DNA from: Escherichia coli
GTDB lineage: Bacteria > Pseudomonadota > Gammaproteobacteria > Enterobacterales > Enterobacteriaceae
DNA length: 7,431 bases
Assembly: GCF_003334305.1 (NCBI RefSeq)
Contig: NZ_QOWS01000047.1
Direction: 5' to 3' (one strand)
The position numbers and the translations under genes are program-made. Positions 1 through 5,706 of this stretch are shown here, in pieces; position 1 is the stretch's first letter; every line of letters begins with the position of its first letter. The notes beneath the pieces were generated by a model. That model had not been told where the DNA came from. It did no database searches and was given only the letters and a program-made list of their open reading frames with translations.

Positions 1-681
1 ATCCGTGTGGCACAGGCGTGGGCAGGCACCGGTTTTGGCCACCTGGCGATACCGCGTGTGGGTCAGGAGGTGATTGTAGACTTCCTCAACGGCGATCCGG
101 ACCAGCCGATCATTATGGGGCGCACCTACCACCAGGAAAACCGCACCCCCGGCAGCCTGCCGGGAACAAAGACGCAGATGACCATCCGCTCCAAAACGTA
201 CATGGGCAGCGGATTTAATGAGCTGAAGTTTGATGATGCGACAGGGAGAGAACAGGTCTACATCCACGCGCAGAAGAACATGGATACCGAAGTGCTCAAC
301 GACCGTACCACCACCGTAAAACACGATCATCGCGAAACCGTAAAAAATGACCAGACGGTCACGATCCAGGAAGGTAACCGCCTTCTTACGGTGGAAAAAG
401 GCCACAAAATCACCGGAGTACTGAAAGGGTCTTTATCTGAGGATGTCTTTCAGGACAGAGGCACGATTGCCGGTTCGGTGCATGTTGACGCTGTAAACAA
501 TGGTGGCGAAGGCGACGGTATACAGGCTTATACGGCGATTAAGGAAATTTTGCTGGCCGTGGAGGAAAGCAAAATTGCGCTGACGCCGGATGGCATTCAG
601 CTACAGGTCGGCGAATCGACGGTAATCAGGCTGTCGAAGGATGGCATCACCATCGTGGGCGGTTCTGTTTTCATCAACTGA
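1..681 (+). CDS. vgrG: VgrG (T6SS spike protein), C-terminal part; 5' end lies outside the window
   Basis: Frame 1 is open from base 1 (the ORF track starts at the first ATG, base 7) to TGA at 679-681. The translation shows a gp5-like beta-helix style region (VKHDHRETVKNDQTVTIQEGNRLLTVEKGHKITG) and a C-terminal extension of the kind seen in VgrG. It sits directly upstream of a chaperone and PAAR-Rhs gene, the canonical T6SS arrangement. Family assigned by eye. Confidence 0.85.
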   Translation: MRVAQAWAGTGFGHLAIPRVGQEVIVDFLNGDPDQPIIMGRTYHQENRTPGSLPGTKTQMTIRSKTYMGSGFNELKFDDATGREQVYIHAQKNMDTEVLNDRTTTVKHDHRETVKNDQTVTIQEGNRLLTVEKGHKITGVLKGSLSEDVFQDRGTIAGSVHVDAVNNGGEGDGIQAYTAIKEILLAVEESKIALTPDGIQLQVGESTVIRLSKDGITIVGGSVFIN

Positions 682-696
682 TTCACTCAGATTATC

Positions 697-702
697 AGGG
701 AG
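697..702 (+). promoter_or_regulatory. Shine-Dalgarno for the chaperone gene (AGGGAG)
   Basis: 6-nt spacer to ATG 709. Confidence 0.55.
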
Positions 703-4100: not shown

Positions 4101-5515
4101 TCCTCTACAGCCGGGATGCCGCAGGCCGCCTGGCAGAGGTCATCACGCCGGAAGGCAAAACACAGTATGCGTATGACAAATCCGGCAGGCTGACGGGTAT
4201 CTTCAGCCCGGACGGCACATCACAGCGCACCGGCTACGACGAACGCGGGCGGGTGAATGTCACCACTCAGGGCCGACGGGCCATTGAATACCACTACCCC
4301 GATGAACACACCGTTATCCGCTGTATCCTGCCACCGGAAGATGAACGCGACAGACACCCCGATGAATCCCTGCTGAAAACCACGTACCGTTATAACGCCG
4401 CCGGAGAACTGACGGAGGTCATTCTGCCGGGGGATGAGACGCTGACGTTCAGCCGTGATGAGGCGGGACGTGAAGTGTTCCGGCACAGTAACCGGGGTTT
4501 TGCCTGTGAGCAGGGCTGGAATGCAGCCAGCCAGCTTGTCACCCAGCGCGCCGGATTTTTCCCGGAGGAAACCACATGGGGCGGGCTGCTCCCCTCACTG
4601 GTACGGGAGTACCGTTACGACAGCGCGCGCAATGTGTCGGCTGTCACCAGCCGGGAAGATTACGGACGGGAAACACGGCGGGAGTACCGGCTGGACCGGA
4701 ACGGTCAGGTCACGGCGGTGACAGCCTCAGGCACCGGGCTGGGCTATGGCGAAGGCGACGAGTCCTATGGCTATGACAGTTGTGGCTACCTGAAGGCGCA
4801 GTCTGCGGGCAGGCACCGGATAAGTGAAGAGACTGACCAGTATGCCGGAGGCCACCGGCTGAAACAGGCCGGAAACACGCAGTATGACTATGACGCCGCA
4901 GGCCGGATGGTCAGCCGCACCAGACACCGTGACGGCTACCGCCCGGAAACAGAGCGGTTCCGGTGGGACAGCCGTGACCAGCTGACCGGGTATTGCAGCG
5001 CACAGGGTGAGCAGTGGGAATACCGCCACGACGCCAGCGGCAGACGAACAGAGAAACGCTGCGACCGGAAGAAAATCCGCTTCACGTACCTGTGGGACGG
5101 CGACAGTATTGCGGAAATCCGGGAATACCGCGATGATAAACTGTACAGCGTACGGCACCTGGTGTTTAACAGCTTTGAGCTGATAAGCCAGCAGTTCAGC
5201 CGGGTACGGCAGCCGCATCCGTCCGTGGCCCCGCAGTGGGTGACGCGGACGAATCATGCGGTGAGCGACCTGACGGGCCGTCCGCTGATGCTCTTTAACA
5301 GTGAAGGTAAAACCGTCTGGCGACCGGGCAGACCAGCCTGTGGGGGCTGGCACTCAGCCTGCCCGCAGACACCGGCTACCCGGACCCGCGCGGGGAACTG
5401 GACCCGGAAGCCGACCCCGGCCTGCTGTATGCGGGGCAGTGGCGGGATGCGGAATCGGGGCTGTGCTATAACCGGTTCCGGTATTACGAGCCGGAGAGCG
5501 GGATGTACCTGGTGA
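1190..5515 (+). CDS. Rhs-family T6SS effector (prePAAR, TM region 1, PAAR, TM region 2, YD-repeat shell), as-read ORF of 1441 aa; the 3' end is disrupted by a frameshift near 5320-5328, so the last ~64 codons of this ORF are out-of-frame read-through
   Basis: ATG at 1190 with GAGGGA 6 nt upstream. The translation carries a prePAAR motif (AARLGDEIQH), hydrophobic helices, PAAR motifs (NINGKPAAR, FINNQPAARKGDKLEC) and many YD repeats (YRYDERGLL, YYYDPDGN, YAYDKSGRL, YDYDAAGRM and others). After ...LMLFNSEGKTVW the frame-2 translation becomes R/G/C-rich nonsense (RPGRPACGGWHSACPQTPATRTR), while frame 1 carries the conserved Rhs core end. Confidence 0.9.
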   Translation: MSEGPGGPQGATAGGTLAMRMLSQQAMVASQMKRAANDKAIAQMLAAKKSGPPAARLGDEIQHKSFLGALAGAVLGAIVTIAEGCLIMAACATGPYALVLVPALMYASYKASDYVEEKQNQLESWINSFCDTDGAINTGSENVNINGKPAARAAVTLPPPPPPGAIPEVPQGEPSWGDIATDLLESAAEKAVPLAKAWGNAVITLTDSNAGFMDRLCAGTSLLFPAGPVLMEFATMVGGRGEIKKDVDFPEAGEDTALCDKENKPPRIAQGSSNVFINNQPAARKGDKLECSAAIVEGSPDVFIGGEQVTYLDIQPEFPPWQRMILGGITIASYLLPPAGLLGKLGNLAKLGKLGNLLGKSGKLLGAKLGALLSRTKNALKNTYNVLKKFIKDPVDPVTGAYCDERTDFTLGQTLPLSFTRFHCSVLPLHGLTGVGWSDSWSEYAWVREQGKRVDIISLGATLNFAFDGESDTAVNPYHAQYILRRRDDYLELFDRDALSSRFFYDAFPGMRLRHPVTDDTSDDRLAHSPADRMYMLGGMSDTASNRITFERDSQYRITGVSHTDGIRLKLTYHASGYLKAIHRTDNGIQTLATYEQDARGRLTEADARLDYHLFYEYDAADRIIRWSDNDQTWSRFTYDEQGRCVTVTGAEGYYNATLDYGDGCTTLTDGKGTHRYYYDPDGNILREEAPDGSTTTYEWDEFHHLLARHSPAGRVEKFEYNAAHGQLSRYTAADGAEWQYRYDERGLLSNITDPAGQTWTQQCDERGLPVSLVSPQGEETRLAYTAQGLLSGIFRQDERRLGIEYDHHNRPETLTDVMGREHHTEYSGHDLPVKMRGPGGQSVRLQWQQHHKLSGIERAGTGAEGFRYDRHGNLLAYTDGNGVVWTMEYGPFDLPVARTDGEGHRWQYRYDKDTLQLTEVINPQGESYLYVLDNCGRVTEERDWGGVVWRYRYDADGLCTARVNGLEETILYSRDAAGRLAEVITPEGKTQYAYDKSGRLTGIFSPDGTSQRTGYDERGRVNVTTQGRRAIEYHYPDEHTVIRCILPPEDERDRHPDESLLKTTYRYNAAGELTEVILPGDETLTFSRDEAGREVFRHSNRGFACEQGWNAASQLVTQRAGFFPEETTWGGLLPSLVREYRYDSARNVSAVTSREDYGRETRREYRLDRNGQVTAVTASGTGLGYGEGDESYGYDSCGYLKAQSAGRHRISEETDQYAGGHRLKQAGNTQYDYDAAGRMVSRTRHRDGYRPETERFRWDSRDQLTGYCSAQGEQWEYRHDASGRRTEKRCDRKKIRFTYLWDGDSIAEIREYRDDKLYSVRHLVFNSFELISQQFSRVRQPHPSVAPQWVTRTNHAVSDLTGRPLMLFNSEGKTVWRPGRPACGGWHSACPQTPATRTRAGNWTRKPTPACCMRGSGGMRNRGCAITGSGITSRRAGCTW
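1349..1378 (+). other. prePAAR motif (AARxxDxxxH) in the Rhs N-terminus
   Basis: Codons gcc gcc agg ctg ggc gat gaa att cag cat give AARLGDEIQH, followed immediately by a hydrophobic segment. Confidence 0.75.
1385..1516 (+). other. Predicted N-terminal transmembrane region 1 of the Rhs effector
   Basis: Hydrophobic, Gly/Ala-rich stretch FLGALAGAVLGAIVTIAEGCLIMAACATGPYALVLVPALMYASY, judged by eye. Confidence 0.6.
1604..2116 (+). other. PAAR region, apparently split by a ~115-aa insertion with a Pro6 stretch (1661-1678)
   Basis: PAAR-like motifs GSENVNINGKPAARAAV (1604-1654) and AQGSSNVFINNQPAARKGDKLECSAAIVEGSPDVFIGGEQV (1994-2116), separated by TLPPPPPPGAIPEVPQGEPSWGD... through ...KENKPPRI. 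Confidence 0.7.
2210..2308 (+). repeat. Degenerate short tandem repeat (unit about gaaactggg) encoding a Lys-Leu-Gly-rich tract within predicted TM region 2
   Basis: DNA ctgggaaaactggggaatctggcgaaactgggcaaactgggaaacctgctggggaaaagcgggaagctgctgggtgcaaaactcggc encodes LLGKLGNLAKLGKLGNLLGKSGKLLGAKLGALL. Confidence 0.6.
2390..5320 (+). other. Rhs YD-repeat shell region (approximate bounds)
   Basis: Recurrent YD-type repeats throughout the translation, including YEYDAADRI, FTYDEQGRC, YRYDKDTLQL, YRYDADGL, TGYDERGRV, YRYNAAGEL and YRHDASGRR. Confidence 0.8.
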
Positions 5516-5706
5516 GTGATCCACTGGGGTTGCAGGGAGGGGAGCAGACTTACCGGTATGTGCCGAATCCTTTAAGATGGATAGATCCCTTAGGATTAAA
5601 TAAAGGAGCTTCATTATCTAAAATGATGAATAGCTCCAGTGATCTCATGGGGTTGAGAAGGCAGCCCCAGAACTTCTGGCGGCTATATCGCGGAAAAGAC
5701 ATTTAA
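5311..5706 (+). other. Frame-shifted 3' continuation of the Rhs gene (frame 1): conserved Rhs core end with two DPLGL motifs, then only ~34 codons before TAA at 5704-5706
   Basis: Frame 1 is open from 5311, just after a TAA at 5308-5310. It reads ...GQTSLWGLALSLPADTGYPDPRGELDPEADPGLLYAGQWRDAESGLCYNRFRYYEPESGMYLVSDPLGLQGGEQTYRYVPNPLRWIDPLGL, the typical end of an Rhs core. The upstream body is in frame 2, so a 1-bp deficit lies within about 5320-5328 (the ccggg run). Confidence 0.8.
5569..5598 (+). other. PxxxxDPxGL motif (PLRWIDPLGL) marking the Rhs core / C-terminal toxin boundary; an earlier DPLGL is at 5518-5532
   Basis: Frame-1 codons cct tta aga tgg ata gat ccc tta gga tta. Codon usage turns AT-rich from about 5560. 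Confidence 0.85.

Follow-up and report, generated by a model that had tools for sequence, protein, structure and literature searches.

Type VI secretion system (T6SS) effectors with a prePAAR motif, defined as AARxxDxxxH (PMC7773334), fall into two published classes. Class I effectors are Rhs-type proteins of ~1200 amino acids (aa) whose one transmembrane domain (TMD) region precedes PAAR and whose chaperones are of the SciW/EagR kind (Ahmad et al. 2020, PMC7773334), whereas class II effectors are ~450 aa long, have no Rhs cage, place TMD regions on both sides of PAAR, carry the motif GxxxxGxxLxGxxxD and use EagT chaperones (PMC7773334). Here we analyzed a stretch of 7,431 nucleotides (nt) from Escherichia coli (contig NZ_QOWS01000047.1, assembly GCF_003334305.1; hereafter the window), which is 100% identical to positions 1370773-1378203, reverse strand, of the chromosome of E. 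coli A7 (NZ_CP028767.1) and carries the 3' end of a vgrG gene, an Eag chaperone gene, an rhs effector gene and a candidate immunity gene. The original prediction, made from the letters of this stretch, had described an intact class II effector with two transmembrane regions, ending at position 5706 and followed by a separate cargo gene. Instead, we consider it very probable that the window is part of an auxiliary T6SS effector island, made up of VgrG, Eag, a class I prePAAR-Rhs effector and an immunity gene, whose effector gene has decayed and is disarmed in this strain. The window itself holds a doubly frameshifted rhs pseudogene, while vgrG, eag and the candidate immunity open reading frame (ORF) are intact. 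The system is of a known kind, here in pseudogene form.

The closest solved relative of the effector is VgrG-EagR-Rhs1 of Photorhabdus laumondii (Tre23; PDB 7PQ5; PMC8636562), which matches the intact allele of the E. coli protein at an E value of 1e-253 from PAAR to the cleavage site. The two share the order prePAAR, TMD1, PAAR, postPAAR helix, YD shell and toxin, an aligned DP(V/I) site, and an adjacent vgrG and DUF1795 chaperone gene. They differ in their toxins, Tre23 being an ADP-ribosyltransferase and the E. coli toxin having an unrelated, predicted zincin-like fold; the E. coli protein also has a ~100-aa PAAR insertion, a longer N-terminal leader and a more hydrophobic postPAAR region (1.62 vs 1.17 on the hydropathy scale used below), and the window copy carries two frameshifts. 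Salmonella Rhs1-SciW and P. protegens RhsA-EagR1 (PMC7773334) likewise combine AARxxDxxxH, one strong TMD before PAAR and an Rhs cage with an eag gene upstream, RhsA (7q97) matching the intact allele at an E value of 1.6e-57, far more distantly than Rhs1/Tre23. The class II systems Tse6-EagT6 and Tne2 (PMC7773334), as well as the small two-TMD prePAAR-PAAR effector Tas1, resemble the locus in prePAAR, PAAR and dependence on a DUF1795 chaperone, but class II effectors are ~450 aa long and cage-free, with GxxxxGxxLxGxxxD and a strongly hydrophobic TMD2. No published description of this locus or toxin was found; the genome paper of EC93 gives counts only (eight rhs loci and one T6SS locus), and the main text of a survey of enterotoxigenic E. 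coli does not name the locus.

A doubly frameshifted rhs gene

The effector gene and the ORF that follows it comprise the following features.

1190 to 5328, + strand: rhs part 1, in frame 2, with the loading region and most of the YD-repeat shell (ORF list, TIGR01643, RHS_repeat, DUF6531)
5324 to 5334, + strand: frameshift 1, one base pair deleted between 5328 and 5329 (CCGGG-CAGACC against CCGGGACAGACC, alignment to EC93)
5329 to 5598, + strand: rhs part 2, in frame 1, with the shell end and the Rhs-associated core (TIGR03696, E 2.3e-20)
5599 to 5652, + strand: toxin domain, codons 1-18, in the rhs frame, NKGASLSKMMNSSSDLMG (contiguous homologs, intact S51 allele)
5649 to 5652, + strand: frameshift 2, a G4 run that is G5 in intact alleles (alignment with FCI51, CH425, S51 and A17)
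5653 to 5712, + strand: out-of-frame tail, LRRQPQNFWRLYRGKDI, then TAA TAA TAG; not genuine protein (frame translations)
5652 to 5999, + strand: remainder of the toxin, in frame 0 (VEKAAPELL...EEFLHGTQ...KDKGL), with its stop at 5997-5999
5999 to 6286, + strand: candidate immunity gene, 95 aa, WP_001021476.1; intact ORF whose ATG overlaps the toxin TGA (ATGA)

An Rhs effector holding both a YD-repeat cage and a PxxxxDPxGL cleavage motif had been proposed. Both elements are present, but 1190-5706 does not form a single reading frame: the cage ORF ends at 5515 and the motif is in frame 1. The YD repeats were matched by TIGR01643 in 10 stretches (E 8.9e-71) and by Pfam RHS_repeat in nine stretches at E <= 0.001, and the long ORF from 1190 also matched DUF6531 (Pfam); as encoded, this frame-2 ORF runs out of frame to a stop at 5513-5515 and comes to 1441 aa. 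Three-frame translation places the conserved closing part of the Rhs core (...QTSLWG...YNRFRYYEPESGMYLVSDPLGL...WIDPLGL) in frame 1, and the alignment to EC93, where the coding sequence (CDS) is intact, revealed that an A is missing between 5328 and 5329 in the window. Frameshift 1 thereby ends the shell ORF before the C-terminal plug, the aspartyl-protease motifs and the toxin. The frame-1 segment contains two DPLGL motifs (5518-5532 and 5584-5598, with the full PLRWIDPLGL at nt 5569-5598) that are 17 residues apart, the same spacing as in Rhs1, where the catalytic Asp lies in the second motif (PMC8636562). The match to 7pq5 stops at residue 1471 of the intact allele, which is the cleavage site, and aspartyl autocleavage is predicted to occur after L1470. 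The frameshift 1 allele is also found in TUM1887, 504838, FCI51 and the orphan copy of DETEC-E601, and its exact 71-nt form is present in 48 of 5426 complete genomes; since it recurs in independent assemblies and in these 48 genomes, it is not an error of the A7 assembly.

The stop that had been taken as the right-hand end of the effector, at 5706, follows the second frameshift, and the toxin continues to 5999. Even in EC93, only 35 residues lie between the DPLGL cleavage site and the triple stop, and a segment of this size (18 genuine residues and 17 out of frame) is too short for a toxin; the end at 5706 is an artefact of frameshift 2. A query in which the tail was fused to the next ORF, with the frames joined at an A-run, matched contiguous single-domain homologs from other taxa at 60-65% identity and 93-99% coverage; these include sequences from Agaribacter, Bordetella muralis and metagenomes, one of them with a PT-HINT domain. 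In the homolog alignment, the family sequence passes from frame 1 to frame 0 after ...SSSDLMG and continues as VEKAAPELLAAISRKRHLIIALPGSDEFRMLEHFGAEAS..., base 5652 being used by both frames at the switch. The tail at 5653-5712 has no counterpart among the homologs, whereas frame 0 does match them. The prediction that intact alleles have five Gs at this site agrees with FCI51, CH425, S51 and A17, all of which carry CATGGGGGTTGAG. A second frameshift located at the A-run around 5693, before the triple stop, was considered and is ruled out, as frame 0 matches the family from VEKAAPELL on and the natural G5 alleles confirm the G-run. Similarly, the idea of an ADP-ribosyltransferase, which came from the letters LYRG in the tail, was discarded, this stretch being out-of-frame sequence.

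In S51, 1585m1 and N1286, an identical CDS in the same vgrG-eag context encodes an intact Rhs protein of 1603 aa (WP_224065153.1) whose stop codon overlaps the start of the 95-aa ORF (ATGA). The true toxin is 133 aa long, reaches 5999 and takes in the annotated 86-aa "hypothetical protein" WP_000889443.1 (5739-5999), which, as judged from these alignments, is the C-terminal two thirds of the toxin domain. The uncharacterised downstream cargo of the original prediction consists for the most part of the displaced rest of the Rhs protein's own toxin domain. Both the Rhs protein of EC93, with its 35 residues after the cleavage site, and WP_000889443.1 are severed-toxin artefacts in annotation; the correction reaches several hundred E. 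coli genomes, and Rhs toxin surveys that cluster by post-core sequence will misfile this toxin.

It could be argued that the 86-aa ORF is an independent gene, encoding for example an adaptor or a second immunity protein, given that it starts with ATG and is an annotated CDS in hundreds of genomes. However, it aligns to the C-terminal two thirds of one domain in all distant homologs, with the homology extending 5' of the ATG in frame, and the Rhs CDS of S51, 1585m1 and N1286 has it as its final stretch; a separate product would also be missing the N-terminal helix and strands of the predicted fold. We regard an independent gene as extremely improbable. There is likewise next to no chance, in our view, that both frameshifts are assembly errors and that A7 really encodes an intact 1603-aa effector. 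Both sites do lie in short G-runs (GGG and GGGG), and nearby A7 genes flagged with internal stops (nfsB, nrfB and ISAs1 transposases) may point to a noisy assembly, but runs of three to four bases are atypical error sites, the 48 genomes with the 5328/5329 deletion include some from independent projects in Japan, India, China and Colombia, and the exact 71-nt G4 allele of the window is present in 535 of the 558 complete E. coli genomes carrying the toxin segment, with 348 member sequences in the cluster of the 86-aa product.

A further explanation takes the G4 run as a recoding or contingency site, at which a -1 slip or G4/G5 slipped-strand mutation arms a fraction of molecules or cells. A -1 slip of tRNA-Gly on G-GGG would restore the exact consensus ...DLMG-VEKAAPELL..., all invariant residues of the toxin family are kept downstream, and the G5 of FCI51, which stands together with the 5328/5329 core deletion in a 93-nt background identical to the window, is compatible with reversion. 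Yet four Gs make too short a run for efficient slippage and do not form an X XXY YYZ heptamer, no downstream stimulatory RNA structure was found (z -0.12), and the shifted frame is closed by three consecutive stops; in the window, the frameshift at 5328/5329 moreover keeps ribosomes from arriving at the site in the right frame. As to the alleles, an in-frame version occurs in ~17 of the 558 toxin-carrying genomes, and most G5 alleles differ from G4 at a linked substitution, which indicates a lineage rather than a rapidly switching state. The conserved residues, too, are expected to persist at 97-99% overall identity. Recoding or contingency at this run is therefore, to our mind, a long shot compared with a decayed gene. 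If it were true, most E. coli with the module would keep scaffold and immunity but have the toxin off, until a rare reversion from G4 to G5 or a -1 slip re-armed it.

Delivery module and effector class

Upstream of the frameshifts, the window carries the following elements of the delivery module.

1 to 681, + strand: vgrG 3' end, the last 226 codons of a 633-aa gene that starts upstream of the window (Pfam, TIGRFAM, RefSeq)
709 to 1170, + strand: eag chaperone gene, DUF1795/DcrB family, 153 aa, WP_001160804.1 (PF08786, E 1.7e-27, whole model)
1349 to 1378, + strand: prePAAR motif AARLGDEIQH, aa 54-63 of Rhs, which fits AARxxDxxxH (regular expression; Pfam prePAAR_I PF25799, aa 54-100, E 4.7e-5)
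1379 to 1516, + strand: TMD region 1, aa 64-109, roughly two hydrophobic helices, where Eag is predicted to bind (hydropathy, Rhs1 alignment)
1583 to 2119, + strand: PAAR in two pieces, aa 132-153 and 266-310 (PF05488, E 0.0087 and 3e-10; NF033420, E 2.8e-11)
2150 to 2365, + strand: postPAAR region, a borderline-hydrophobic helix (aa 321-344) followed by a Lys/Gly/Leu-rich part (aa 345-392) (hydropathy, alignment)
2366 to 2374, + strand: predicted N-terminal autocleavage site D393-P394|V395 (DPVDPVTG), aligned to GDPIDVTTG of Rhs1

The gene order of VgrG, DUF1795 protein and Rhs cargo given in the original prediction was borne out, with significant matches to the VgrG, DUF1795 and PAAR models. 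The part of VgrG within the window matched Gp5_trimer_C (E 1.7e-22) and Phage_base_V (E 5e-10) in Pfam, and the full gene matched TIGR03361 at an E value of 1e-187 (624.8 bits, cut-off 186) and TIGR01646 at 441.6 bits. Matches of such gp27/gp5-like models above the curated cut-off identify a VgrG spike (TssI), in line with the RefSeq product name "type VI secretion system tip protein VgrG." The eag product combines membership of the DUF1795 family with a position beside the prePAAR effector gene, as expected for an Eag chaperone, and its stop lies 19 nt upstream of the rhs start. Its nearest solved relative by sequence is EagT6/PA0094 (E 1e-5), beyond which no solved chaperone, that of Salmonella Rhs1 included, matched at E <= 1. 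EagT6 is the chaperone of a class II effector; chaperone similarity at this locus does not appear to follow effector class. The wider genome, where a T6SS core cluster had been suggested as a check, holds a complete one: in A7 it lies at 947-972 kb, ~0.4 Mb from the window, beside tRNA-Asp and yafT, and includes tssA, B, C, E, F, G, H, J, K and M, dotU/icmH, tagH, two copies of hcp and a vgrG, followed by further rhs genes. Taken together, these findings support a T6SS cargo locus built from vgrG, eag and a prePAAR-Rhs gene. We also observed that a second frameshifted rhs gene of A7 adjoins this main cluster.

Within the loading region, the prePAAR motif AARLGDEIQH is where it had been predicted, at aa 54-63. 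Two hydrophobic regions flanking PAAR had also been reported, and their strength was assessed by 19-residue Kyte-Doolittle averages (KD19) with a threshold of 1.6. The first region is clear (aa 64-105), with a KD19 maximum of 2.13 and 18 windows >1.6, and aligns with TMD1 of Photorhabdus Rhs1. The second exists but is borderline: a single window exceeds 1.6 (aa 324-342, MILGGITIASYLLPPAGLL, KD19 1.62) and includes a Pro-Pro pair. This stretch aligns with the postPAAR of Photorhabdus Rhs1/Tre23 (7pq5), which in Rhs1 is a conserved helix and a second EagR-binding site (Jurenas et al. 2021, PMC8636562), and is its counterpart here. The two-block alignment to 7pq5 further suggests that PAAR is split by an insertion of ~100 aa (aa 155-254, nt 1652-1951), which has a PPPPPPP run at its start and a mildly hydrophobic stretch at aa 216-234 (KD19 1.36). 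The leader before the prePAAR motif (aa 1-53, nt 1190-1348) is rich in Ala, Gln and Met, and the equivalent motif of Photorhabdus Rhs1 lies near residue 33, as against residue 54 here. For the autocleavage site, the N-terminal cleavage site of Rhs1 is D288-P289|I290 (PMC8636562), and from the DPI sequence and its position we infer that the segment GDPIDVTTG is this site.

Under the published definitions, these sequence features class the effector as a class I prePAAR effector. AARxxDxxxH lies N-terminal to PAAR in a large Rhs protein with a YD-repeat cage, and the protein matches the Pfam model "Class I prePAAR effector Rhs1 motif." The class II label of the original prediction, on the other hand, did not hold up: with the cage present, the protein is 1505 aa (frame-1 repair) or 1603 aa (intact allele) long instead of ~450 aa, and a regular expression for GxxxxGxxLxGxxxD found no match anywhere in it. 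In favor of class II, it can be said that the post-PAAR stretch at aa 324-342 just attains the classical KD19 threshold, and that the Rhs1 postPAAR binds a second EagR, so that the protein may offer chaperones two sites, as class II effectors do. But TMD2 of Tas1, an effector with two TMDs used as a comparator, reaches a KD19 maximum of 2.53 with 29 windows >1.6, as opposed to 1.62 and one window here, and the corresponding parts of Photorhabdus Rhs1 and P. protegens RhsA come to 1.17 and 1.38, respectively. Equating two transmembrane regions plus an EagR-type chaperone with class II mixes the published definitions of both classes. In addition, the gene is not intact, and the downstream ORF is a piece of the Rhs protein's own toxin. 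An intact class II effector with two transmembrane regions, an end at 5706 and a separate downstream cargo is hence most improbable.

Toxin fold and candidate immunity gene

The repaired 133-aa toxin had no significant match in Pfam, NCBIfam, PADLOC or PDB profiles. Its AlphaFold model, built from 48 homologs (pLDDT 85.7, pTM 0.78), matched Tox-MPTase4 proteins in Foldseek (E 4.5e-5, TM ~0.69), along with members of the toxin family that sit C-terminally in S-type pyocin, DUF4280/PAAR-like, PT-TG, WXG100 and RHS proteins. An invariant EEFLHGTQ (E-E-x-x-H) lies in a long helix of the model (aa 71-86), and this helix appears to sit where zincins carry HExxH, an equivalence of helix position rather than of superposed residues. 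Two members of the toxin family matched PF15640 (Tox-MPTase4) weakly, at an E value of 0.07, whereas the toxin itself gave no significant match to this profile and carries EExxH in place of the zincin HExxH; the combination of a significant profile match and HExxH that would place it in Tox-MPTase4 was thus not found. What the toxin does share with Tox-MPTase4 is the predicted fold and the place at the C-terminus of polymorphic toxin carriers (RHS, PT-HINT, PT-TG, pyocin, WXG100 and PAAR-like). Based on the modeled fold, we read the toxin as a putative, uncharacterised zincin-like metallohydrolase that is related to Tox-MPTase4 rather than a demonstrated member of it. That it is the first polymorphic toxin of zincin-like fold to be described with an EExxH variant, together with the recoding or contingency role of the G-run discussed above, we consider highly unlikely.

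The 95-aa ORF that begins at the toxin stop is likely the immunity gene, as suggested by its position and by one distant homologous pair: it is homologous (27% identity, E 3e-7) to a 93-aa ORF directly after the toxin homolog P0007. NCBIfam searches with the 86-aa and 95-aa ORFs and a PADLOC search with the 95-aa ORF gave no match. The contig of P0007 (Ga0645992_000163, a JGI metagenome) carries tandem cassettes, namely a Tsi6-like gene, an EndoU_bacteria toxin with a small ORF, the toxin with the 93-aa ORF, and a transposase-like gene; it looks like an orphan toxin array.

A mechanism can be proposed for the intact allele from its homology to Photorhabdus Rhs1/Tre23, RhsA and Salmonella Rhs1. 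Eag dimers would shield TMD1 and probably the postPAAR helix too, prePAAR and PAAR would cap the VgrG spike, and the YD-repeat shell would enclose the 133-aa C-terminal toxin, with predicted self-cleavage at D393-P394|V395 and after the second DPLGL (L1470|N1471). The T6SS-1 machine, ~0.4 Mb away, would then fire the complex into a neighbour cell, where the zincin-like toxin would act on the target cell while the 95-aa product would protect siblings. Of the features expected for a functional T6SS effector, the core genes are present in the genome and an uninterrupted effector frame is not.

Several points weigh against our reading of the locus as an effector island with a class I effector, an immunity gene and a disarmed toxin. 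The transmembrane calls come from Kyte-Doolittle hydropathy alone. The immunity role is drawn from gene position and a single distant homologous pair, and the ORF beside the Agaribacter toxin homolog has no detectable similarity to the 95-aa ORF. The truncated 1441-aa Rhs protein might nonetheless be produced and function as a PAAR tip. Finally, homopolymer lengths are open to miscall in long-read assemblies, and FCI51 shows G5 in a window-like background, which may be a reversion or such a miscall. Strains S51, 1585m1 and N1286, on the one hand, and the disarmed strains, on the other, form a natural armed/disarmed pair for the uncharacterised toxin and its 95-aa candidate immunity protein, and this pair could show whether a toxin-less Rhs scaffold is kept as a T6SS tip.

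Orphan copies and the island around the locus

At least 80% of the window is present as a single piece in 419 more complete E. coli genomes, and other strains carry its toxin/immunity module in different arrangements. In DETEC-E601 and A17, the same module occurs as an N-terminally truncated orphan behind a different main toxin/immunity pair, and in DETEC-E601 this orphan is already frameshifted. The window aligns with the main gene of DETEC-E601 over 1-5570 and with its orphan over 3569-7431, the latter gap-free. From this pattern we infer that a deletion by homologous recombination between the repeated rhs cores may have put a frameshifted orphan tip on the main gene. Orphan Rhs toxin/immunity modules of Salmonella are reportedly activated by recombination (Koskiniemi et al. 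2014, cited in PMC10761095). The present case resembles them in that the same module is a promoterless orphan in DETEC-E601 and A17 and a fusion to the main rhs gene in the window, in collinear copies. Unlike in Salmonella, the module now on the main gene is frameshifted here, and recombination, if it is the origin, gave rise to a disarmed effector and not to a newly armed one.

A second recombination or deletion junction of the island lies at 7106/7107, where the window joins DNA proximal to ISEc1 directly; S51, A17 and N1286 carry an extra orphan rhs fragment at this point, which is annotated as [quoted passage not shown] In FCI51, with its G5 allele (described above), and in ZYB62, a deletion beside cusS has removed vgrG, eag and the 5' part of rhs; ZYB62 matched the G5 query over 93 nt without gaps and is probably in frame too.

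The island boundary falls within the window and is marked by the following feature.

7107 to 7431, + strand: left part of ISEc1 (ISAs1 family), with the transposase start at 7251; island boundary (RefSeq annotation, BLAST against S51 and A17)

In the RefSeq annotation of the surrounding 47 kb of A7, the island is flanked by cusS on one side and by ISEc1/nfrB on the other. There, vgrG (633 aa) is followed by genes for a "DcrB-related protein" and for an "RHS repeat-associated core domain-containing protein," the latter flagged as "frameshifted"; two genes for small hypothetical proteins come next, and an ISEc1 transposase closes the series. Between the candidate immunity gene and ISEc1, the segment 6287-7106 is without an annotated gene and low in GC (0.28-0.33), and it is also present in strain S51. 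Since the window and S51 have this segment in common, it belongs to the toxin/immunity module and not to the insertion sequence; its small ORFs at 6414-6572 and 6577-6774 (52 aa and 65 aa) had no match in NCBIfam or PADLOC. Across the window, GC is 0.55-0.63 over vgrG-rhs and drops to ~0.30 from ~5500 on. Low GC is usual in the toxin/immunity tips of Rhs loci. Near the island or the T6SS cluster, A7 additionally carries pseudogenes of nfsB and nrfB, with internal stops, and of four ISAs1-family transposases.

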